Below, piece after piece: positions 29,823-54,753 of a stretch of 64,000 nt of DNA (positions are counted from its first letter, which is position 1; each line of letters begins with the position of its first letter). The notes below the pieces were generated by a model that saw only the letters and a program-made list of their open reading frames with translations, was not told the DNA's origin and made no database searches. Location of the stretch: the NCBI RefSeq assembly GCF_058153355.1, contig NZ_CM177019.1; one strand, 5' to 3'. Both the position numbers and the translations under genes were made by a program.

Positions 29823-31133
29823 CTAAATAAATTCAGCCCCACTAGGAAAACGCAACTCTGATGTCTGTAAACTCTCGCCAATAAAGAAAGGTACAACCCA
29901 TAAACGTAACCTATTTTCCTTCTGATGGCTAAATTCATAAGGATGAGGAGATGGCTGATTAAATCCGTTATGATAGGGGTATATCAAAATCATATCACCT
30001 TCCCCCTCCTGGTAATTCAATCCATAGGCAAGCATTTGGTAGAGATCGGCTTGAGATTGCTCAAGACTGTCCTTTCTGCCATTAACTATCTTCCATTTAA
30101 CATCACAGGTAATAACTGAACCAGTAGTACTTTTACGAGGCCGTAAACAAATATCAGGCCGCAGCTTAAATAAAGCTTTACCGTTATAACTAATCAGATT
30201 TTTTGAACTTACCTGTGCGTCCACTCGCCATTTATCATAATAACGATAACGCATCCATGTCGTCACAAAAGATTCAAAAACAGCCTCCATCGGGAAAAGC
30301 AGTGAAAAAGCATTAACATCCCCATACATACAGTGTGGAGAATCGCCCAATAAAATCATCTTCGCCCACGCTAATGCTTGCTCATAGTGATGCATTTGTC
30401 TATCAAAGTGTAACTGCTCGAAAGCTATATAAGCATCATGAACTGACGTGATATTTTCAAAGTGAAACTGCAGCTGTGTTATCTGCTGTAATAATTGTGG
30501 ATTACTGGTCTGGCGACTAATCTTATTGATTGCAGTTTTGAGTATCCGGTTTTCCAGACGATTGACGCTGTACTCGTCATACTCTACCTGAAAACGATCC
30601 CGCCTAATACAGTTTTTGCTTAATTGTGCAGAGATCCGTAATCTTCCTTTCATCCATGGAAGATTATCTTCCTGACGTAAATAGTCACGTTTTAACCCTC
30701 TCTGCACAATCTTACGCACGCTCTCTATAAATTGTTGAATAAAGATATCCATCAGAGGCATTTTAGATATTTTGACGCCAGATTCAGAGGAGGCAATATG
30801 ACGAAATGATTTTAACGTACGTAACATCATCAGTAATTGTTGACGAACAGTATCCTCATTATCCTGACCTGTTTTAGGCAGGATTTCGAGAAATCGCCCC
30901 CCTGGCAGTGAGATTACTCCTGCATAGTTTTTTACCTGCAGCGTTTTTACTCCATTCCGGCTGCTAAGGGTGAGCAAACGATGAGTATTATCAGCATCGT
31001 CTTTCAGACAGCGCAGCTCAAGCCATTTAAATAGGTCTGCAGGTAGCACTACCGCATTATTTATACGGGCATCACCTTCCTCACTCACTAAATGCCCGTA
31101 TTCGAACACAGTGAAATGACTGGAAGATTTCAT
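29823..31133 (-). CDS. McrC-like nuclease subunit of a McrBC-type modification-dependent restriction system (start at MKSSSHF; ORF track TTG start at 31199)
   Basis: ATG overlaps the stop of the upstream McrB-like gene (ATGA overlap); size and position typical of McrC; sequence is not the K-12 McrC. Confidence 0.7.
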   Translation of the reverse strand: MKSSSHFTVFEYGHLVSEEGDARINNAVVLPADLFKWLELRCLKDDADNTHRLLTLSSRNGVKTLQVKNYAGVISLPGGRFLEILPKTGQDNEDTVRQQLLMMLRTLKSFRHIASSESGVKISKMPLMDIFIQQFIESVRKIVQRGLKRDYLRQEDNLPWMKGRLRISAQLSKNCIRRDRFQVEYDEYSVNRLENRILKTAINKISRQTSNPQLLQQITQLQFHFENITSVHDAYIAFEQLHFDRQMHHYEQALAWAKMILLGDSPHCMYGDVNAFSLLFPMEAVFESFVTTWMRYRYYDKWRVDAQVSSKNLISYNGKALFKLRPDICLRPRKSTTGSVITCDVKWKIVNGRKDSLEQSQADLYQMLAYGLNYQEGEGDMILIYPYHNGFNQPSPHPYEFSHQKENRLRLWVVPFFIGESLQTSELRFPSGAEFI

Positions 31134-33184
31134 TCCGCACTCCTGCGTTTTTCTTTTTGAGGTGCATAAATTTGCTGCCAGGCGATTGGATTGTCCCAAA
31201 CGTTGTCATCCTCTGCTGCCAGGTGAAAACTGGTTCCCAAGTCATCTGTTCCGTTATCACCAAAGAGATCGGCATACTTTTTCTGGTATTTCACCTCACG
31301 TACAAATTGAAGATCTGGTGCTTCCTCTTTTTGGTTATCAGCCAGTACCATGCGAATTTTTTGCCAGTCATTGTAAAAATATTCTTCCAGCAATGGTAGT
31401 ATCTTATTTCGCATAATCCGTTTGAATCTTTCAAATGCCAGAGCTTCGTCTTCTTTTGCCTGCACAACAGGGATAAAAAAAGCATGCCCCAGCATATGTT
31501 CTCTATCGTATAAAACCTGGATGCGATCGTTAAGCGTCTGCAATAGACGAGGCAGATCAATACCTTTAATGACAGTATCTTTCAGAACAGTAATATCTGG
31601 CAGCATCGCTTCAAAATCAAATCTGCGACGTAGTGCAGTATCAAGTGCAGTAAGCGAATGATCAGCAGTGTTCATGGTACCAATTAAATAAAGGTTATTC
31701 GGTACACTAAATGGAGTGGAAGAGTATGGCAGCAATACGCTAAGCGATTCTGGCTCACCAGCCCGTTTAGATGGCTCAATAAGGGTAATTAGTTCACCAA
31801 AAATTTTTGAAATATTACCCCGATTTATTTCATCAATAATGAGAACATAGTTTTCCTTTTTTTCTGAAGCTACGCTCTGAGTATTCAGAGGCAGATAACG
31901 TTGATTAATTAAATAGTTAAGGATACTGCGTACATAAGATGGATTATGTACTTTTGCTCGTGGATCCTGATAAACTTGCCGAATATCCTTCAAATAGGCA
32001 TTGTAACCCTGTCCTAAATCCTCTTTTTTCGATTGTGACGGAAAAATTCCAAAGTTGGTTTGACTTTTATACGTCAGCTGGAAGGCCTTACCCTGTTGTG
32101 TTTCCAGCGTGATATTTTCACCTTCAGATAAACGTTCTTGTAGGCGAGTAAGTGCGCTATCCAACATTTCCTGCGCACCAGCATGACCAAAGGCGGCATC
32201 CTCGCATATCTGTTTAAAAATACCTGCCTTTATTTCGTATTTTACATTACCGTCATCAGTAGTCTCAGCTCTTAAACCTTCAATAAACTCTTCATAACCA
32301 AAGCTCTGATGAAAGGTGATAAAACGCACTCGATTATCTTTGATAAGCTGATCATAAATCTTTTTCAACTCGCGACGTTTTTCACTCTCATCCTTACCCT
32401 CCTGCAGGGAGTAAGCGATCGGATCACAAATTTGTACAGCAAGCTCAATAGTACGATATGTTTTACCTGTACCTGGCGGGCCATAGAGAATTGTGTTTTT
32501 AGGCAATGGCGAACTTATAACATCATCTTCTTGCTCATTTTCTTGTAAAGCACTTTCGCTTCCAACTAAACCGATAGCATTTTTATCCTGAATTTCATAC
32601 GCATAGAGATGCCAAAGTGACATATTCAGCTCAATAGGGTCGATATCATCACCCAGCGCACGATTTAGCGTTTCTTTAAGATCAACATTGCGAGCCAGCC
32701 ACTCCCGTTCTCCGGAAAGACCTAGCTGGAAATGGTTGTTGCAATAATTGTAGCAACTAAAAAAATTATTAACATTCACGACACTGCTAATTTTTGATGG
32801 GTATATTGCTGCAAAAGCACGATTACAAAGAGCCCTATATACCTTATTTAATACTCCGTCCGCTTTAAGTTTGATAAGACGTTCAATGACCCGATTATAA
32901 TTTTCTTGTGTACACTCTTCTGCTATCTGACGGGTGAGCGTTAGAAGGTCTTTTTGTGCATTTTCAAATTCAACCAATGACATCCCACCTTGCATCAGGC
33001 TGGAGACACCATTGTCACGTTCATACCATACCTGCCGAATCGTGGCTTCAGAAAAGTTTGGTTTTTCGGCCTGAATCTGTTCTACAAGCTCGCGGTAGTG
33101 TTTGCCCCAAACTGAATTGTATTGATTATTTTTTTCAATTTGAGCACGAAAGAAGGGGGCTAATGCTGATGAATCCTGAACCAT
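31130..33184 (-). CDS. McrB-like AAA+ GTPase subunit (684 aa) with a divergent ~230-aa N-terminal domain
   Basis: Walker A LYGPPGTGKTY and McrB-signature MNTADHS...RRRF motifs; N-terminal region has no resemblance to the K-12 McrB DNA-binding domain. Confidence 0.78.
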   Translation of the reverse strand: MVQDSSALAPFFRAQIEKNNQYNSVWGKHYRELVEQIQAEKPNFSEATIRQVWYERDNGVSSLMQGGMSLVEFENAQKDLLTLTRQIAEECTQENYNRVIERLIKLKADGVLNKVYRALCNRAFAAIYPSKISSVVNVNNFFSCYNYCNNHFQLGLSGEREWLARNVDLKETLNRALGDDIDPIELNMSLWHLYAYEIQDKNAIGLVGSESALQENEQEDDVISSPLPKNTILYGPPGTGKTYRTIELAVQICDPIAYSLQEGKDESEKRRELKKIYDQLIKDNRVRFITFHQSFGYEEFIEGLRAETTDDGNVKYEIKAGIFKQICEDAAFGHAGAQEMLDSALTRLQERLSEGENITLETQQGKAFQLTYKSQTNFGIFPSQSKKEDLGQGYNAYLKDIRQVYQDPRAKVHNPSYVRSILNYLINQRYLPLNTQSVASEKKENYVLIIDEINRGNISKIFGELITLIEPSKRAGEPESLSVLLPYSSTPFSVPNNLYLIGTMNTADHSLTALDTALRRRFDFEAMLPDITVLKDTVIKGIDLPRLLQTLNDRIQVLYDREHMLGHAFFIPVVQAKEDEALAFERFKRIMRNKILPLLEEYFYNDWQKIRMVLADNQKEEAPDLQFVREVKYQKKYADLFGDNGTDDLGTSFHLAAEDDNVWDNPIAWQQIYAPQKEKRRSAE

Positions 33185-33542
33185 CTCTTAATCCAATATG
33201 TAGGGGGGAGGGAAATTGGGATAGCCTTATCTTATCGGATTAATCTCAAAAATGTTAAATTTTATGATAAAAAAAAACTTTCATCCTGAAATTACCTTCT
33301 GCCCTGGAGCCGCCACATTTATCTGATGACTTTGAACTGCAAAACGCATGGTGTTGGTGGTTCTCAGAGAAGGCCATAGCATTCTTTCAGACGTAAAATC
33401 GCTACTCGTTTTTCAACCTGTGTGCATTTTCTAGTTGCATAGGGAATCAACTGTTTTTCAGGTAGGTATTGTTTACAGTAAATGGATATGCCGAAATTCA
33501 GAGGGTTCCAGTAACGACATTTTGACAGCAAACATACGACAT

Positions 33543-34376
33543 TCATTTTGCTGATAACGCTGACGGATAGTGCTTCGCCACAATGTCATTCATCTTATCC
33601 ACCAGATCCAGTCGCTTGAATGTGATGTGTCCACTGCCTTTCTGGTAATAGCGGATGACAAATAAATCGTCATTAAATACCTGCTCATGCGGGTGAGCAC
33701 TAACGAAGTCCATAAACCGAATCGCAACATCATGCCGGTTATCGGGAATGGCCTTCCCATCCAGCAGATAGAACATCCGTTCCAGATCGGCAAGCTGATC
33801 TCGCCGCCAGCCCCAGTGCAGGCTGTAACCCCATCGGTCATGCTTCACCAGATTGTTAACGATAATCTTCTTACCGAAATAACAGGGATTATTGGTTTTG
33901 TAATCCCAGCTCAATCCCTTAAATACATTGATAATCCCACGTTCGAAAACGTCATGCTTATTGTGGTGGAGTTGTTCAAAGGTACTCAGGATGTTGGCTT
34001 CGCTAATCGCCGGGAGATCGCCCTCCTCCAGGTTCTTTGCCCACTGACTGCGGGCTTCGGCATCCATCAGAGTCAACATCCCGGACTTCAGCATGAGATC
34101 GCGCCAGATGCTGCGATCGATATTGCGGGTGATCGCCGACATCGCTTTGTCGGTTGGTTGCATCAGCCAGCAGTCAAAGGCATATCCATTACGCATTCCC
34201 CAGGTTCCAGCCACATCACCGCCAATACTGGATGTCAGACTGGAGATATCATCCAGTTTTTGGATTAGCGTCGCTATCAGCTTCAGTGCGCTATCACGTC
34301 CTGTGACGATACGCTCAATATTGGTCGAGCGAATTATCTCGTTGTGATCGGTTAAGACTTCAGCTTCTGTTTGCAT
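33543..34376 (-). CDS. Hypothetical protein (277 aa), same strand and upstream of the McrBC-like pair; possibly a DUF4942-type protein (low confidence)
   Basis: Uninterrupted ORF, no recognised catalytic motif; located inside the defence island. Confidence 0.5.
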   Translation of the reverse strand: MQTEAEVLTDHNEIIRSTNIERIVTGRDSALKLIATLIQKLDDISSLTSSIGGDVAGTWGMRNGYAFDCWLMQPTDKAMSAITRNIDRSIWRDLMLKSGMLTLMDAEARSQWAKNLEEGDLPAISEANILSTFEQLHHNKHDVFERGIINVFKGLSWDYKTNNPCYFGKKIIVNNLVKHDRWGYSLHWGWRRDQLADLERMFYLLDGKAIPDNRHDVAIRFMDFVSAHPHEQVFNDDLFVIRYYQKGSGHITFKRLDLVDKMNDIVAKHYPSALSAK

Positions 34377-34682
34377 AATCTTTCATCCGTAAAAAAATAC
34401 ACTCGCCGTTAGTAGCAGACGGATTATCCTCTGGTGAAAGATTGGGTAAATAATGAGATTGAAAATCGGGAAGGTGACTCGCAATAAATTATCTGATCAC
34501 CTACGGATGGACGATGGGCATATAAAATAGCCTCCTGACTCAAACGGTGAATGCTGAATAAGATGCACTAACAATCTGGTACTGAATCCCCTCCTCACCG
34601 TCATACAAATCTGAAAAACCAAAAAACTTCCGGTAAAATCCCGGCAAAAGCCGACGTTAAAAACACATTCAAAGGATAAAAA

Positions 34683-36239
34683 ATGACCAGTCTTCAGCAG
34701 CGCGCGGAGCTTCATCGCCAAATCTGGCAAATTGCTAACGATGTCAGAGGTTCGGTCGATGGATGGGATTTTAAGCAATACGTTCTGGGCGCGCTTTTCT
34801 ACCGTTTTATCAGCGAAAATTTTTCCAGCTATATTGAAGCCGGTGATGACAGCATCTGTTATGCGAAACTGGATGACAGCGTAATTACTGATGACATTAA
34901 AGACGATGCCATCAAAACCAAAGGCTACTTCATCTACCCAAGTCAGCTTTTCTGCAACGTAGCTGCGAAAGCAAATACCAATGACAGACTGAACGCAGAT
35001 TTAAACAGCATCTTCGTTGCTATCGAAAGTTCTGCTTACGGTTACCCTTCAGAAGCTGACATCAAAGGTTTGTTTGCTGATTTCGATACCACCAGTAACC
35101 GCCTGGGTAATACCGTTAAGGATAAAAATGCCCGCCTGGCCGCGGTTCTGAAAGGGGTTGAAGGGTTAAAGCTTGGCGACTTTAACGAACATCAGATTGA
35201 CCTGTTCGGCGATGCCTATGAGTTCCTGATTTCTAACTATGCGGCGAATGCCGGTAAGTCAGGCGGCGAGTTCTTTACACCGCAGCACGTCTCTAAGCTG
35301 ATTGCACAACTGGCTATGCACGGGCAGACCCACGTTAACAAAATCTACGACCCGGCAGCGGGTTCCGGTTCGCTGTTGTTGCAGGCTAAAAAGCAGTTTG
35401 ATGACCACATCATCGAAGAAGGTTTTTTTGGTCAGGAAATCAACCATACGACCTATAACCTGGCGCGTATGAACATGTTTTTGCACAACATCAACTACGA
35501 CAAGTTTGATATCAAGTTGGGCAATACGCTGACTGAGCCGCACTTCAGAGATGAAAAACCGTTTGACGCCATCGTATCTAACCCACCGTATTCGGTGAAA
35601 TGGATAGGCAGCGATGACCCGACGCTGATTAACGATGAACGTTTTGCCCCGGCTGGCGTCCTGGCCCCCAAATCAAAAGCTGACTTCGCCTTTGTACTAC
35701 ATGCGCTGAACTATCTTTCTGCCAAAGGTCGTGCTGCGATTGTCTGCTTCCCGGGTATTTTTTACCGTGGCGGCGCAGAGCAGAAAATCCGTCAGTATCT
35801 GGTTGATAATAACTATGTCGAAACCGTGATTTCACTGGCTCCGAACCTGTTCTTTGGCACCACCATTGCCGTCAATATTCTGGTGTTGTCTAAACATAAA
35901 ACCGATACCAAAGTTCAGTTTATTGACGCCAGCGAACTATTCAAAAAAGAGACTAACAACAACATTCTGACCGATGCCCATATCGAACAGATTATGCAGG
36001 TATTTGCCAGCAAGGAAGATGTTGCTCATCTGGCGAAATCTGTCGCGTTTGAGACCGTTGTCGCTAATGACTATAACCTGTCGGTAAGCAGCTATGTGGA
36101 AGCGAAAGATAACCGCGAAATTATCGATATCAGTGAGCTGAATGCTGAGCTGAAAACCACGGTCAGCAAAATCGACCAGTTGCGTAAAGATATTGATGCG
36201 ATTGTGGCTGAAATTGAAGGCTGCGAGGTGCAGAAATGA
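34683..36239 (+). CDS. hsdM: Type I restriction-modification system methyltransferase subunit HsdM (type IC, EcoR124-like)
   Basis: 518 aa; N6-adenine MTase motifs ([10 protein letters not shown] motif I; IVSNPPYS motif IV); closely resembles recalled EcoR124I HsdM. Confidence 0.93.
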
Positions 36240-37390
36240 ACGAGTTGAGTTATCTGGAAAAATTACTGGATGGGGTTGAGGTTGAGTGGTTGCCATTGGC
36301 TAAAGTTTGTCGTTTAATAAACGGGAGAGCATATAAGCAAGAAGAACTGCTTTCCAAAGGCAAATATCCAGTATTAAGAGTCGGTAATTTTTTTACTAAC
36401 CAAAATTGGTATTACTCAGATTTAGAATTAGATCAAGACAAGTATTGTGATAACGGTGACCTTTTATATGCTTGGTCCGCATCATTTGGTCCAAGAATTT
36501 GGCATGGGGGTAAATCTATTTACCATTATCACATATGGAAAGTGGTTCCAGATTCGAATCTTATTTGTAAACAGTTTCTATATTACTTGTTACAATGGGA
36601 TACTAAAGCACTTAAAGATGCACATAGCACTGGTTCTACTATGATGCACATCAGCAAAACTACAATTGAAAAAAGGTTAGTCCCCATCCCCTGCCCGGAT
36701 AATCCGGAAAAATCCCTTGCCATCCAGTCTGAAATCGTTCGGATTCTGGATAAATTTACTGCACTTACCGCTGAGCTTACCGCTGAGCTTAATATGCGAA
36801 AAAAACAGTACAACTACTATCTCGACCAGTTACTGAATCTTGAGGGTAGGGAAAATACTCGAGAAATGAGGATAGGTGATATTTATGATTTTCAGTATGG
36901 AACAGGCAATACAATTCCTAAATCTGGAGGGCAATATCCTGTTTATGGTAGCAACGGGATTGTAGGCTCCCATGACAAATATAACAGCGAAGACTCACCT
37001 GTTATTGGCCATATAGGTGCTTACGCAGGAATCGTTAACTGGGGCCAGGGTAAGCATTTTGTTACATACAACGGAGTTATTTGTAGGCACAAATCGAAGG
37101 AAGTTCTTCAAAAATACGCCTACTATTTATTACTTTTACAAGATTTCGGTTCAAAATCTAATAGTGCATCACAGCCTTTTGTTTCATATAACATATTAAA
37201 TGCTCCTATTGTTTTGGTTCCCCCTTTACAAGAGCAAGCTCGTATCGTCGCAATACTCGATAAATTCGACACCCTGACCAACTCCATCACCGAAGGTCTT
37301 CCGCGTGAAATCGAGTTGCGCCAGAAACAATACGAGTACTATCGTGATTTACTGTTCAGTTTCCCAAAACCTGAAACTCTCAGTAATTAA
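36236..37390 (+). CDS. hsdS: Type I R-M specificity subunit HsdS (type IC) with two target-recognition domains
   Basis: 384 aa; conserved central ([35 protein letters not shown]) and C-terminal ([33 protein letters not shown]) type IC regions flanking variable TRDs; 4-bp overlap with hsdM. Confidence 0.9.
36764..36787 (+). repeat. Two tandem copies of a 12-bp unit (CTTACCGCTGAG) encoding TAEL-TAEL in the HsdS central conserved region
   Basis: Perfect 12-bp tandem duplication seen in sequence; in type IC systems the copy number of this repeat sets the spacer length of the recognition site. Confidence 0.85.
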
Positions 37391-37511
37391 TTGACCATTA
37401 TTACAGACCGGACCATCTTAATATCCGGTCAGTATATAGACTATTTTTTACACGCCGGAAGTCACCATTAACCCCCTTCCGGCCCTTGCCAGACGGCACA
37501 AAGGATGCGCT

Positions 37512-40500
37512 ATGACTCATCAAACACACACCATTGCTGAATCCAATAACTTTATCGTTCTTGATAAGTACATCAAAGCTGAGCAAACAGGCGACAGCTA
37601 TCAGAGCGAATCGGACCTGGAACGTGAACTGATTCAGGACCTGCAAAATCAGGGCTATGAATTTATACCCGTAAAATCACAGTCAGCGATGCTGGCCAAC
37701 GTTCGGGAACAGCTTCAGAGCCTCAATGGTGTGGTGTTTAATGACAGCGAGTGGCGGCGTTTCACGGAGCAGTATCTGGATAACCCGAGCGATGGCATTC
37801 TGGATAAGACCCGTAAAATCCATATCGACTATATTTGCGACTTTATTTTTGATGACGAGCGACTTGAGAACATCTATTTGATAGATAAAAAGAATCTCAT
37901 GCGCAATAAGGTGCAGATTATCCAGCAGTTTGAACAGGCGGGTTCCCACTCTAACCGCTATGATGTCACGATCCTGATTAATGGCTTACCACTGGTACAA
38001 ATCGAACTGAAAAAGCGCGGCGTGGCGATTCGTGAGGCTTTCAACCAGATACATCGTTACAGTAAAGAGAGTTTTAACAGCGAAAATTCCCTGTTTAAGT
38101 ATCTGCAACTGTTTGTCATTTCTAACGGCACCGATACCCGTTACTTTGCCAACACCACAAAGCGCGATAAAAATAGTTTTGACTTCACCATGAACTGGGC
38201 GAAATCAGACAACACGCTGATTAAAGACCTCAAAGATTTTACCGCTACCTTTTTCCAGAAACATACTCTGCTTAATGTTCTGGTGAACTACAGCGTGTTC
38301 GATATTAGCCAGACGCTACTGGTGATGCGACCGTACCAGATTGCCGCCACCGAACGAATCTTATGGAAAATCAACAGCTCCTATAAAGCGAAAAACTGGT
38401 CTACCCCCGAAAGCGGTGGCTTTATCTGGCACACCACCGGTTCCGGTAAAACCCTGACCAGCTTTAAAGCTGCGCGTCTGGCAACAGAGCTGGACTTTAT
38501 TGATAAAGTCTTCTTCGTGGTCGACAGAAAAGACCTCGATTACCAGACCATGAAGGAATATCAGCGTTTTTCGCCAGATAGTGTTAACGGTTCGGAAAAT
38601 ACCGCAGGCCTGAAACGAAATCTGGATAAGGACGATAACAAAATTATCGTCACCACTATTCAGAAACTTAATAACCTGATGAAAGCAGAAAGCGACCTGC
38701 CTGTATACAATCAGCAAGTGGTGTTTATATTTGATGAATGTCACCGCAGCCAGTTTGGAGAAGCGCAGAAAAACCTGAAGAAGAAATTCAAACGCTATTA
38801 TCAGTTTGGTTTTACCGGCACACCTATTTTCCCGGAAAACGCTTTAGGCTCAGAAACGACCGCCAGCGTATTTGGTCGTGAATTGCATTCGTATGTGATT
38901 ACCGATGCGATTCGTGATGAAAAAGTGCTCAAATTCAAGGTGGACTATAACGATGTGCGGCCACAATTTAAGTCTTTAGAGACAGAAACCGACGAGAAAA
39001 AACTGAGTGCGGCTGAAAATCAGCAGGCGTTTCTTCATCCCATGCGTATACAGGAAATTACGCAATATATTCTGAATAACTTCCGCCAGAAGACCCACCG
39101 TACTTTCCCAGGTTCCAAAGGCTTTAATGCCATGCTGGCAGTGAGTAGCGTGGATGCCGCGAAAGCCTATTACGCGACGTTTAAACGGTTACAAGAGGAA
39201 GCCGCTAATAAATCTGCTACCTATAAACCACTACGTGTTGCGACAATCTTCTCCTTTGCCGCTAATGAAGAACAAAATGCCATTGGTGAAATTTCCGATG
39301 AAACTTTTGATACCAGCGCAATGGACAGCAGTGCTAAAGAGTTTCTCGACGCTGCAATTCGTGAATATAACAGCTATTTTAAAACTAACTTCAGTACCGA
39401 CAGTAACGGTTTTCAGAACTACTATCGTGATTTAGCCCAACGGGTTAAAAATCAGGATATCGATCTGTTAATTGTCGTTGGGATGTTTTTAACCGGCTTC
39501 GACGCTCCAACATTGAACACGCTATTCGTCGATAAAAACTTGCGTTTTCACGGCCTGATGCAGGCATTTTCCCGCACCAACCGCATTTATGACGCCACTA
39601 AAACCTTCGGTAACATCGTCACTTTTCGGGATCTGGAACGCTCAACCATTGATGCCATAACGCTGTTTGGTGATAAAAATACCAAAAATGTGGTGTTAGA
39701 AAAGAGTTATGCCGAGTATATGGAAGGCTTTACAGATGCTGCCACTGGTGAAGCTAAACGCGGCTTTATGGCAGTAGTTTCAGAACTGGAACAACGGTTC
39801 CCTGACCCTGCCAGTATTGAAAGTGAAAAAGAGAAGAAAGACTTCGTTAAACTGTTTGGTGAATACCTGCGCGCCGAGAACATCCTGCAAAACTATGATG
39901 AATTTGCCACGCTGAAAGCCCTGCAACAAATCGATCTTAGCGATCCTGTTGCGGTAGAAAAATTCAAAGCAGAACATTATGTGGATGATGAAAAGTTTGC
40001 TGAATTACAAACGATTCGTCTCCCTGCTGAACGTAAGATTCAGGATTATCGTTCGGCCTATAACGATATTCGTGACTGGCAGCGCCGCGAGAAAGAAGCT
40101 GACAAAAAAGAAAAATCAACCACTGACTGGGATGACGTGGTTTTTGAGGTCGATTTGCTGAAGTCTCAGGAAATAAACCTGGATTATATCCTTGGACTGA
40201 TTTTCGAACACAACAGACAAAACAAAGGTAAGGGCGAAATGACCGAAGAGGTCAAACGCTTAATTCGTTCGAGCCTTGGGAACCGTGCCAAAGAAGGCCT
40301 GGTGGTCGATTTTATTCAACAAACGAACCTGGATGATTTGCCGGATAAAGCCAGTATCATTGACGCGTTCTTTATCTTTGCTCAACGCGAACAGCAACGT
40401 GAAGCAGAAGCGTTGATTAAAGAAGAAAATCTCAATGAAGAAGCAGCGAAACGCTATATTCGCACGTCTTTAAAACGCGAATACGCCACCGAAAATGGCA

Positions 40501-40628
40501 CAGAATTAAACGAGACGTTACCAAAACTTAGTCCGTTAAACCCGCAATATAAAACGAAAAAACAGACGGTTTTCCAGAAGATCGTCGCGTTTATTGAGAA
40601 GTTTAAAGGTGTAGGCGGGCAGATATAA
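37512..40628 (+). CDS. hsdR: Type I restriction enzyme R subunit HsdR (type IC, EcoR124-like), 1038 aa
   Basis: SF2 helicase motifs ([24 protein letters not shown]) and N-terminal nuclease region; near-identical over long stretches to recalled EcoR124I HsdR. Confidence 0.93.
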
Positions 40629-40852
40629 TGTATTAATCCGAACCTGATCTGGCAGATAGCTGTCAGATCAGGACTGAGCTAATACAAATTAATATCGAAC
40701 CGAAAATACCAACGCCTGTACCAACATTTTTCGTTTGCGATGGGTTGAAATTGGTTGGCTCTGAGAGAGTTAAAATAGCGAGAAAGATAGGTAACTAATG
40801 GATCCCAGACACAAAAAAAGCCGCCCTTGAGCGACTCGATTTGCATACGATG

Positions 40853-40937
40853 TGGTGCCGAAGGCCGGACTCGAACCGGCACGTATTTCTACGGTTGATT
40901 TTGAATCAACTGCGTCTACCGATTTCGCCACTTCGGC
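40853..40937 (-). tRNA. leuX: tRNA-Leu (anticodon CAA), leuX
   Basis: 85-nt sequence on the minus strand matches recalled leuX (GCCGAAGTGGCGAAATCGGTAGACGCAGTTGATTCAAAATCAACCGTAGAAATACGTGCCGGTTCGAGTCCGGCCTTCGGCACCA); its 3' end faces the island. Confidence 0.95.
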
Positions 40938-41132
40938 ACTGAAGAGGTATGCGGAAAACGTTGTGGATTATACCTGTCGCACGCCACCATGCAAGCGCCA
41001 GCTTGCACCCACTTTGCTAAGTGCTGAAATTTTCAGCATTGCATACCGCGATGTGTAACCTTTGTCACACTCCAGGCACCCCGCCCTACCATGCTCTACA
41101 CTTCCCAGACAACACCAGAGAAGGACAAAAAT

Positions 41133-46390: not shown

Positions 46391-47905
<1,515 letters not shown>

Positions 47906-51366: not shown

Positions 51367-51385
51367 TACTCATAGTGAAAACGAA

Positions 51386-51411
51386 GGCCGGAGCATACTC
51401 CGGCCTTTTTT
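51386..51411. terminator. Bidirectional intrinsic terminator between valS and yjgN (GGCCGGAG-CATA-CTCCGGCC + T tract)
   Basis: 8-bp GC-rich stem and TTTTTT seen in sequence. Confidence 0.65.
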
Positions 51412-51416
51412 ATCTC

Positions 51417-52190
51417 TTACAGAAATGGTAAAGAAGGCATAACTCCCCGAGAAATACTGGCTAAGAAGCCTTTATCTGGTTGTTCTTCTTTATTGATTAA
51501 AGGAAGGTCATCCAAATCGCCCAGCAAATACGTATTTTTTGCCTGCCAGTCAATCATCCATATTTTCAACAGTGGATAAGCCAGACCGCCCGTAATCCCG
51601 GATATCACCACCAACGCACACATGCGATAAAGCATACCGTGGTACGTTAAAGTTGAGCGAAAACGAATACGCCCATCATTCAGTGACAGGTTGCTCATAA
51701 AATGGTTTCGCAACGACACCGTTAAATAACTGGTGCTAACAGCAATCCCAAAATAATAGATTAACTGCGCGATTATCATTTTACGTTGCATTTCCATAAA
51801 TTGCTGTAAATTCTCAATGTCATCATTTGCATATACAGAACTATCATACGCATTTAATATTTGATCGAAGATAATATAACCAGCAACAGCGAGAAAAGGC
51901 AATAAAGCTAAAAATGCGAGAATGGCATATTTTATACAATACGTAGTATCTAATTTCACCTTGAAACGATGTATACCGAAACTGGTATTGCTCCAGAGAA
52001 AACTCATTACCAGACTATATAAAGTACCATTAAAAATACCAATGGAAACAATACCAACTATTGCCATCAGAACCATAGATATAATAACACTACTTGAACT
52101 ATTGGCATGTAGCATCTTTGTCGAGATAAAGAAAACAGTCCCCATCCCAACGGCCATTAAAATCGGCAAGAAAAAGGTCACCCACCAGAG
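51417..52190 (-). pseudogene. yjgN: yjgN C-terminal fragment (DUF898 inner membrane protein), separated from its 5' part by IS4
   Basis: Reading frame continuous with the fragment at 53617-54057 once the 1426-bp IS4 and one copy of the 12-bp duplication are removed. Confidence 0.8.
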
Positions 52191-53616
52191 TAATGCCGAT
52201 CAGTTAAGGATCAGTTGACCGATCCAGTGGCTGTGTAAGAATCCGGAAACGCTCACTTGTTTCCGGATTTTTTTATGCACATTGGACAGGCTCTTGATCT
52301 GGTATCCCGTTACGATTCTCTGCGTAACCCACTGACTTCTCTGGGGGATTACCTCGACCCCGAACTCATCTCTCGTTGCCTTGCCGAATCAGGTACTGTA
52401 ACGCTACGCAAGCGCCGTCTTCCCCTCGAAATGATGGTCTGGTGTATTGTTGGCATGGCGCTTGAGCGTAAAGAACCTCTTCACCAGATTGTGAATCGCC
52501 TGGACATCATGCTGCCGGGCAATCGCCCCTTCGTTGCCCCCAGTGCCGTTATTCAGGCCCGCCAGCGCCTGGGAAGTGAGGCTGTCCGCCGCGTGTTCAC
52601 GAAAACAGCGCAGCTCTGGCATAACGCCACGCCGCATCCGCACTGGTGCGGCCTGACCCTGCTGGCCATCGATGGTGTGTTCTGGCGCACACCGGATACA
52701 CCAGAGAACGATGCAGCCTTCCCCCGCCAGACACATGCCGGGAACCCGGCGCTCTACCCGCAGGTCAAAATGGTCTGCCAGATGGAACTGACCAGCCATC
52801 TGCTGACGGCTGCAGCCTTCGGCACGATGAAGAACAGCGAAAATGAGCTTGCTGAGCAACTTATAGAACAAACCGGCGATAACACTCTGACGTTAATGGA
52901 TAAAGGTTATTACTCACTGGGACTGTTAAATGCCTGGAGCCTGGCGGGAGAACACCGCCACTGGATGATACCTCTCAGAAAGGGAGCGCAATATGAAGAG
53001 ATCAGAAAACTGGGTAAAGGCGATCATCTGGTGAAGCTGAAAACCAGCCCGCAGGCACGAAAAAAGTGGCCGGGACTGGGAAATGAAGTGACAGCCCGCC
53101 TGCTGACCGTGACGCGCAAAGGAAAAGTCTGCCATCTGCTGACGTCGATGACGGACGCCATGCGCTTCCCCGGAGGAGAAATGGCGGATCTGTACAGTCA
53201 TCGCTGGGAAATCGAACTGGGATACAGGGAGATAAAACAGACGATGCAACTGAGCAGGCTGACGCTGAGAAGTAAAAAGCCGGAGCTTGTGGAGCAAGAG
53301 CTGTGGGGTGTCTTACTGGCTTATAATCTGGTGAGATATCAGATGATTAAAATGGCGGAACATCTGAAAGGTTACTGGCCGAATCAACTGAGTTTCTCAG
53401 AATCATGCGGAATGGTGATGAGAATGCTGATGACATTGCAGGGCGCTTCACCGGGACGTATACCGGAGCTGATGCGCGATCTTGCAAGTATGGGACAACT
53501 TGTGAAATTACCGACAAGAAGGGAAAGGGCCTTCCCGAGAGTGGTAAAGGAGAGGCCCTGGAAATACCCCACAGCCCCGAAAAAGAGCCAGTCAGTTGCT
53601 TAACTGACTGGCATTA
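52191..53616 (+). mobile_element. IS4 insertion sequence, complete (1426 bp), imperfect terminal inverted repeats TAATGCCGATCAGTTAAGG / CTTAACTGACTGGCATTA, flanked by 12-bp direct repeat CACCCACCAGAG (52179-52190 and 53617-53628)
   Basis: Terminal inverted repeats, exact IS4 length and perfect 12-bp target-site duplication all seen in sequence. Confidence 0.93.
52275..53603 (+). CDS. insG: IS4 transposase (InsG), 442 aa from MHIGQALDL
   Basis: DDE transposase; sequence matches recalled IS4 InsG. Confidence 0.92.
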
Positions 53617-54057
53617 CACCCACCAGAGCCCTTTCATAGAGCAATTAAAACTAAATCTTACGCCGTTGAGACTGGTCATTAAGGCCTGATGACGCAGTCC
53701 TTTTGCTGCCATAAATATAAGCAAAACCAACAGTAACAAAGTCAAAACACAACCAACAAGCGGCATATCTGCTGACACTGTCATTAAGATTGCGAAATAG
53801 AAAAAAACAAAAACAAAAACAAGACAACTAACAAAAACATTCCCACCGGTAATTCCATAAGAAAATCGTTGTCCGTTAACTTCCATATTAGCATAAAGAT
53901 AACGCTTACATTTCATTAATGCCCATGGTAAATAGATACCTAACGTTATAATCGTTAACAACACATTCACCACACAAATAAGAAAATATCTCTCACCTGT
54001 ACCATGAAAAACAAACGAATGGGACGGAACATCCATTTCATTAATAACTTGAGCCAT
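53617..54057 (-). pseudogene. yjgN: yjgN N-terminal fragment (start MAQVINEMD), interrupted by IS4
   Basis: N-terminus of DUF898 membrane protein; reading frame runs into the IS4 right end. Confidence 0.8.
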
Positions 54058-54249
54058 AAAAAATCCCTGAATTAAAAAATCCATTGATATAACTTATATA
54101 TACAGACAGTAAAATGTTCTGCCACGTTACAATACTCTTATCAGTAATAGGCTGGCAAAAACTTTATTACTTTATAAGTCGCTTGCGCACGTAAGAAGAG
54201 AGTGGTATTAAACAAATGTATAATTACTTTATTTTTATTGGGTTAAACT

Positions 54250-54753
54250 ATGAATAACATTGCGCCGCAATCACCTGTAATGCGTCGCCTGACGCTGCAG
54301 GATAATCCTGCTATCGCCCGCGTCATTCGTCAGGTATCCGCCGAATACGGTCTTACCGCTGATAAAGGCTACACCGTCGCCGATCCGAATCTTGACGAGC
54401 TGTATCAAGTGTATAGTCAGCCTGGCCATGCATATTGGGTAGTTGAGTACGAGGGTGAAGTGGTCGGCGGCGGTGGGATAGCGCCATTAACCGGGAGTGA
54501 GTCGGACATTTGCGAACTGCAAAAGATGTATTTTCTTCCGGCTATCCGCGGCAAAGGGCTGGCAAAAAAACTGGCCTTAATGGCGATGGAGCAGGCGCGA
54601 GAGATGGGTTTCAAACGCTGCTATCTGGAAACGACAGCTTTTTTAAAGGAAGCCATTGCGCTTTATGAGCATTTGGGCTTTGAGCATATCGACTATGCGC
54701 TTGGCTGCACGGGCCATGTCGATTGTGAAGTACGGATGTTGCGCGAACTCTAA
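54250..54753 (+). CDS. yjgM: GNAT-family N-acetyltransferase YjgM
   Basis: 167 aa; acetyl-CoA binding motif (RGKGLAKKL). Confidence 0.85.

Follow-up and report, generated by a model that had tools for sequence, protein, structure and literature searches.

Members of the IS4 family are defined by a transposase encoded by one ORF, in which the catalytic triad is spaced D(60-110)D(100-150)E and a Y(2)R(3)E(6)K motif occurs, and the IS4 subgroup is described as having a length of 1400-1650 bp and a target duplication of 10-13 bp (PMC2266710). IS4 was found in 2,686 of 5,426 complete E. coli genomes. The window analysed here, a 64-kb stretch of DNA, carries such an element within the coding sequence of yjgN (Table 1). 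We are highly confident that a canonical IS4 inserted there recently, with a rare A-to-G change in the target probably favouring the event, to give a loss-of-function allele.

Table 1. Features of the yjgN::IS4 locus, in window coordinates.
Feature	Position	Strand	Basis or remark
Bidirectional terminator-like hairpin between convergent valS and yjgN	51383..51408		Terminator scan
yjgN 3′ fragment, 257 codons + stop	51417..52190	-	Coding 52190->51420; DUF898 profile positions 127-315, 1.5e-15
Left target arm, caagaaaaaggt	52167..52178		A-run 16-20 nt outside IS4 end
Target-site duplication, left copy	52179..52190		CACCCACCAGAG
Lineage-private G, last duplication base	52190 (also 53628)		A in intact alleles, C in O157:H7; yjgN Phe144Leu
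IRL, left terminal inverted repeat	52191..52208	+	TAATGCCGATCAGTTAAG
Promoter-like site, candidate transposase promoter	52215..52242	+	Consensus scan; TTGACC, 16-nt spacer, TG, AAGAAT
Strong hairpin then T-run, just 5′ of transposase ATG	52237..52272	+	Inverted repeat
IS4 transposase gene, InsG-type, 442 aa	52275..53603	+	Open ORF; Pfam Nterm_IS4 3e-33, DDE_Tnp_1 9e-32
Terminator-like hairpin, 11-bp perfect stem then UCUUUUU	53587..53612	-	Terminator scan; 5-30 nt inside IS4 right end
IRR, right terminal inverted repeat	53599..53616	-	TAATGCCAGTCAGTTAAG; 16/18 positions match IRL
yjgN 5′ fragment, 147 codons (MAQVINEM...KGLWWV)	53614..54057	-	Coding 54057->53617; DUF898 profile positions 2-132, 2e-31
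Target-site duplication, right copy	53617..53628		CACCCACCAGAG
Right target arm, ccctttc mirroring left A-run	53629-53635		Half-site matrix

The element occupies 52191-53616 on the plus strand and is a complete IS4 of 1426 bp, directly bounded by the two copies of a 12-bp repeat. Over its whole length it shares 99.9% identity with E. coli copies annotated as 'IS4-like element IS4 family transposase', and from each of most of the aligned copies it is separated by a single synonymous nucleotide, at IS position 1089 (window 53279). The 18-bp imperfect terminal repeat pattern occurs at only two places in the 64-kb window, compared with a chance expectation of 0.03, and the ends have the -AATR- signature listed in Table 1 of PMC2266710. 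The 442-aa transposase read from Met52275 is identical to two compared E. coli copies (L028 and L033); RefSeq starts IS4 transposase copies at the equivalent of TTG 52257, resulting in 448 aa. By sequence position the catalytic residues are D133, D209 and E314, with spacers of 75 and 104 residues, and the YREK motif is present as Y307-R310-E314-K321, so that the motif spacings fit the IS4-family definition (PMC2266710). The original prediction of a complete 1426-bp IS4 with an intact transposase inside yjgN was thus borne out by the ends, the Pfam domains and the 99.9% identity. In every respect that could be tested, namely length, ends, transposase motifs, duplication length, near-identity and target pattern, the element agreed with IS4, and we assign it to IS4 itself (insG-type, IS4 subgroup) and not to a variant. 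No Rfam match was obtained in or near the element. Its intact ends and intact ORF make it likely that this copy can transpose.

The two minus-strand ORFs flanking the element are parts of one DUF898/YjgN protein (PF05987), and the fragment sizes of about 147 and 257 aa given in the original prediction are both exact. The 5′ fragment ends at a TAA stop codon that consists of the three terminal bases of IS4 (53616-53614). Compared with annotated yjgN alleles, yjgN of the window shows 97.1-99.3% identity, and its neighbours are those seen in other E. coli, the convergent valS on one side and the divergent yjgM on the other. Since yjgN is monocistronic and convergent with valS, with which it shares a putative bidirectional terminator, polarity on other genes would not be expected. 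About 15% of complete E. coli genomes are without a match to this part of yjgN, and a literature report lists yjgN among the genes gained or lost between ST131 clades; it is a dispensable membrane-protein gene. The sole paper retrieved that names both yjgN and IS4 deals with inversions in Shigella sonnei, where IS21 and IS1 lie close to yjgN, and has no bearing on the present insertion.

When both strands of the 64-kb window were searched, CACCCACCAGAG was found only at the two positions flanking IS4, the chance of a given 12-mer recurring at a given place being ~6e-8 (4^-12). The target sequence is present once, contiguous with both flanks, in all seven aligned intact yjgN alleles (PCN033, KK05-19, SW070912, a K-12-like strain, BL21(DE3), an O157:H7 strain and IR53017), although the exact 12-mer of the window, with its final G, differs from these alleles, which end in A or C. 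With a 400-nt query, the reconstructed empty site aligned without interruption at a single location in 4,577 complete E. coli genomes, and an 81-nt empty-site query was covered to at least 80% in one piece in 4,583 complete genomes. Deletion of IS4 together with one repeat copy gave a single open yjgN frame that runs for 400 codons when read from the annotated start. The single-copy target in the intact alleles indicates that the repeat is a genuine duplication created by the insertion, as the original prediction of a perfect 12-bp direct repeat had implied.

The target preference of IS4 was examined with independent sites from Kosakonia oryziphila and Photorhabdus khanii contigs, complete E. 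coli genomes and viral or prophage contigs, the Kosakonia and Photorhabdus flanks being obtained by a search for the IS4 left end in which each species was represented by a single genome. The resulting target matrix comprised 57 distinct half-sites, many of them from one Kosakonia genome, with yjgN excluded and positions taken as independent. Duplications at other IS4 copies measured 11-13 bp, except for one of 14 bp by simple end-matching. IS4 targets are pseudo-palindromes in which an A-run and a GC-rich arm precede the duplicated core and a complementary arm and a T-run follow it, and several of them resemble bidirectional intrinsic terminators, such as aaaaaacctGCCATCGCTGGCaggttttttttt beside typA; the tdk-adhE hairpin has taken up IS4 in separate events of either orientation, the duplications being 11 bp and 12 bp long. 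Positions -20 to -16 of the half-sites are mainly A. The base adjoining the IS end (position -1) is G in 46 of the 57 half-sites and A, the rarest base there, in one, while the mirror position -12 is C in 29 and T in 3. The shape of the yjgN site, aaaaaGGt[C..10 nt..G]cCCttt, is that of other IS4 targets. For galT and the pheST attenuator, early studies reportedly proposed AAA-N20-TTT as the target of IS4, a pattern which the yjgN site fits.

When all 187,446 placements in the window without its IS4 were scored (background scores averaging -17.5 bits, sd 8.0), the yjgN site reached 16.3 bits and rank 4 with G, and 8.3 bits and rank 168 with the ancestral A. Real IS4 sites scored 1.5-22.8 bits by leave-one-out. 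The score of the A site lies within the range of real sites, which argues that the SNP was not strictly required and that the A allele would be a usable but much poorer target. The G itself is a direct observation: along the 1,203 nt of yjgN, 52190/53628 alone among single-base positions differs from all of the 8-10 compared alleles. With moderate confidence we propose that this SNP preceded the insertion and promoted it, and we regard as evenly poised the stronger statement that the rare A-to-G change (Phe144Leu) turned a mediocre IS4 target into one of the best of the region and thereby triggered the disruption of yjgN.

The private G, again older than the insertion, may instead sit at the junction by coincidence, without any targeting effect, a reading we consider possible but doubtful. 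It gains from the A site already lying in the top 0.1% of window placements and above 5 of 14 leave-one-out real sites, and from the poor sampling of the lineage, no complete genome being at least 99% identical over the large blocks tested. What speaks for a targeting effect is where the change fell and what it changed: the chance of a lone private SNP falling on either duplication end position is ~2 in 1,203, and the substitution replaces the rarest base at -1 with the commonest (A, 1/57, to G, 46/57) and, at -12, T (3/57) with C (29/57). If an effect of the SNP on targeting is true, the locus is a natural case of a SNP potentiating site-specific IS insertion, and IS4 responds, in choosing a target, to the terminal base of the duplicated segment. 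The ~8-bit gain at that edge would be a cheap and testable way to learn how closely IS4 adheres to its target pattern, and the flank matrix derived from other IS4 sites is usable for predicting IS4 hot spots.

The order of events follows from the chemistry of transposition. In DDE transposition with staggered cuts, each repeat copy retains one original target strand. With G in both copies, this mechanism implies that the target had G:C before the insertion. The proposal that the SNP came first is therefore drawn from the transposition mechanism, the intact G allele being found in none of the genomes and contigs searched: the 81-nt empty site with G had no exact match among 4,597 matching genomes, the best having one mismatch; JGI metagenome contigs had no exact match to the right repeat and flank with G, a pattern that would reveal intact and interrupted alleles alike; and neither the Leu nor the Phe version of the reconstructed intact YjgN was on record in an exact-protein look-up. 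This absence of the intact G allele from complete genomes, metagenome contigs and the protein look-up favours an origin of the G during or after the insertion, through errors of gap repair or homogenisation of the repeat copies. Such an origin is nonetheless very unlikely, as judged from the mechanism, because it would need two independent errors at non-equivalent gap-filling steps, or recombination between 12-bp tracts. The idea that the G by the left end is an IS4 base brought from a donor site was rejected, since the G at 53628, at the end of the repeat facing away from IS4, still differs from all the intact alleles. We accordingly retain a G-bearing target that preceded the insertion.

The transcriptional consequences of the insertion were deduced from predicted signals. 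The hairpin at the right end of IS4, contained in a 71-nt segment that folds at -28 kcal/mol (z = -3.7), is predicted to terminate yjgN transcripts entering the element. At the left end, a 66-nt segment with the second hairpin folds at -27.6 kcal/mol (z = -6.4), and this hairpin overlaps the -10 of the sole promoter-like site in the IS4 left end, a layout predicted to stop or occlude transcripts from outside and to spare those from the element's own promoter. The original prediction had suggested that the outward-facing ends of IS4 could drive the downstream fragment, which would make this a regulatory insertion with an outward promoter expressing the 257-codon part of yjgN. Several other IS elements do carry outward or hybrid promoters, and a GTG at 52181 opens a 254-aa ORF; even so we consider this highly improbable. 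On the yjgN-sense strand, the left end of IS4 yielded no sigma-70-like outward promoter with 9/12 matches, and when the threshold was lowered to 8/12 (minus strand, 52420 to 52120), with 15-19-nt spacers and hybrids included, there were 0 hexamer pairs compared with 1.4 expected. No Shine-Dalgarno-like sequence precedes GTG 52181, and read-through from the yjgN promoter would hit the hairpin at 53612-53587. By sequence scan, the yjgN 3′ fragment is without a promoter of its own or an obvious ribosome-binding site. The lack of an outward promoter combined with the terminator-like hairpin at the right end suggests that the 3′ fragment is most likely silent, and that yjgN::IS4 is most likely a null allele. 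The scan predicted no terminator on the plus strand in the 53604-54250 interval, and the only conceivable effect on a neighbour would be weak read-through from the transposase gene towards yjgM.

The yjgN::IS4 junction was found in 0 of the 5,426 complete E. coli genomes. The sole further occurrence found is in the Logan assembly SRR31441161, of which one contig crosses the right junction, shows no difference from the window along 4,467 bp (100% identity) and has the same 147-aa product called; SRR31441161 may be the same or a nearly identical strain, so that its support for the junction may be only weakly independent. The identical repeats, the intact element and this very narrow distribution point to a recent, lineage-restricted insertion, in line with the relatively recent event originally predicted. 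IS elements are classic misassembly sites and no complete genome shares the junction, as would be the case if the placement of IS4 were an assembly artefact, a repeat collapsed or mis-joined into yjgN. This is exceedingly improbable, given that both junctions are base-precise at the IS4 termini with a duplication of the length expected for IS4, that the site fits the IS4 target pattern at rank 4 of 187,446, that a separately assembled Logan contig spans the right junction, and that a mis-join could not generate a 12-bp duplication. The probability that the 12-bp repeat is native yjgN sequence, present twice in uninterrupted alleles and owing nothing to transposition, a counter-case raised with the original prediction, is next to negligible, as the seven intact alleles of diverse lineages hold a single contiguous copy, the single-copy site aligns in one piece (at least 80%) in the 4,583 genomes and excision of one copy with IS4 brings the reading frame back.

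Look-ups with the 156-aa and 246-aa alternative ORF products gave no match. The look-up of the 254-aa C-terminal product, by which the left junction was not reached, led to a separate case: in assembly GCA_050027435.1, yjgN is independently inactivated by a TGG-to-TAG nonsense change 5 nt from the insertion point, with no IS4. An interpretation of this change, which lies in an unrelated assembly, as the footprint of an IS4 excision was rejected.

Taken together, we propose that the target yjgN would have acquired the rare A-to-G change before the insertion, that this change would have markedly bettered the match to the IS4 target and probably promoted the event, and that a canonical IS4 then transposed into the yjgN coding sequence in a recent ancestor of the strain. 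The DDE transposase would have made cuts staggered by 12 bp, with gap repair resulting in the 12-bp duplication, at a landing site that was not chosen at random, a short pseudo-palindrome between an A-run and a T-run like other IS4 targets. The probable outcome is a loss-of-function yjgN, with a 147-aa N-terminal stub ended by an IS4-supplied stop and a 3′ fragment that is most likely silent. The element is already known and insertions of this type are commonplace; the proposed SNP-potentiated targeting is the only mildly novel part. The yjgN of this strain should be annotated as a pseudogene, and beyond correct annotation the disruption has little importance; as an intact copy, the IS4 would offer homology for rearrangements and is probably still mobile.

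Among described systems, IS10 and IS50 have in common with IS4 the DDE/YREK chemistry, duplications close to one helical turn in length and a symmetric target preference (PMC2266710). They belong to different subgroups, however, with 9-bp or 8-9-bp duplications and ends different from those of IS4. IS10 has an outward promoter, whereas none is detectable in the IS4 of the window. The closest match is E. coli IS4, which has the same 1426 bp, the same 18-bp imperfect repeats, 99.9% nucleotide identity and, in the two compared copies, an identical protein; the 12-bp duplication of the window falls within the 11-13 bp of the other copies examined, and the only differences are the location, yjgN being unoccupied in the 5,426 complete genomes, and one synonymous base. 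The sites at the intergenic tdk-adhE hairpin, beside typA, beside aroA and within ygeA share with yjgN the architecture of A-run, arm, core, arm and T-run, and have an 11-13-bp core with, most often, C at the start and G at the end. Several of the other IS4 sites are intergenic and resemble bidirectional terminators, whereas at yjgN the target falls within a coding region, its arms pair less well (AAAGG/CCTTT), and it scores high only when the private G is present.

Comparison of the window yjgN with all compared alleles revealed only two private differences, namely the junction G that ends the IS4 target duplication and one extra unit in an (AAAAAC)n array, which carries one unit more than each allele compared (n = 10) and thereby adds Val-Phe to a transmembrane-like stretch. 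A second inactivation of the gene was found in E. coli GCA_050027435.1 (L038), where the nonsense mutation TGG to TAG at Trp145 (GGGTTCTAGTGGGTG) lies just 5 nt away from the IS4 insertion point of the window. Because the stop is so close to that point, the downstream yjgN ORF of L038 (254 aa) is identical to that of the window, with no IS4 there; the nonsense mutation is an event independent of the IS4 insertion.

Features located in the window and in compared loci
Feature	Location	Strand	Remarks
McrBC-like genes and type I restriction-modification system	window 30000-41000		adjoin tRNA gene
tRNA gene	window 40856-40937	-	counterpart of tRNA-Leu annotated at the same position in strain PE15
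Ysr276 (RF02850)	window 46952-47146	-	lptF-pepA region; full-length Rfam match, 181.9 bits
(AAAAAC)n array	window 53803-53839		within yjgN 5' fragment
IS621 transposase gene (IS110 family)	window 63393-64000	+	continues past window end
yjgN nonsense mutation, Trp145	L038 2995-2997		JBAOPY010000019.1
IS4 left end	L004, NZ_BPQU01000128.1		265-bp contig, Methylobacterium mesophilicum assembly

Other E. coli strains were compared for their IS4 sites. At a terminator-like hairpin between tdk and adhE, IS4 is inserted in opposite orientations in different strains (L001 versus L030/L031) with duplications of 11 bp and 12 bp, and the hairpin is a single IS4 hot spot struck independently. In E. coli SCU-172, a genome with 18 IS4 places, the two sides of one copy (L032, 20158-21743) show no matching direct repeat and the copy adjoins a truncated GntR-family gene, which together suggest deletion or recombination between IS4 copies.

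Beyond E. coli, at least 15 IS4 copies were detected in Kosakonia oryziphila REICA_142 (L005-L020), every one at a contig end, and one in Photorhabdus khanii NC19 (L003). The 40-nt left ends of the copies from both species are identical to that of the E. coli element; this identity and the presence of copies in the two genera indicate that IS4 spread across genera and expanded recently. The Methylobacterium mesophilicum contig shares its IS4 flank with an insG-labelled site of E. coli (L033) and is probably E. coli contamination in that assembly.

The restriction region of the window is a variable island, since only 143 genomes cover at least 80% of 30000-52190. Position 40833, immediately beside the tRNA gene, is among the best-scoring predicted IS4 targets in the window. 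For three large window blocks, the best identities among 5,426 complete E. coli genomes were 98.8%, 97.0% and 98.6%; as none reaches 99% over any block, the lineage of the window is poorly represented in this set.

Lastly, strain N96 carries IS621 at the same place as the window, downstream of ridA, with 98.9% identity; members of the IS110 family have recently been shown to work with bridge/seeker RNAs.
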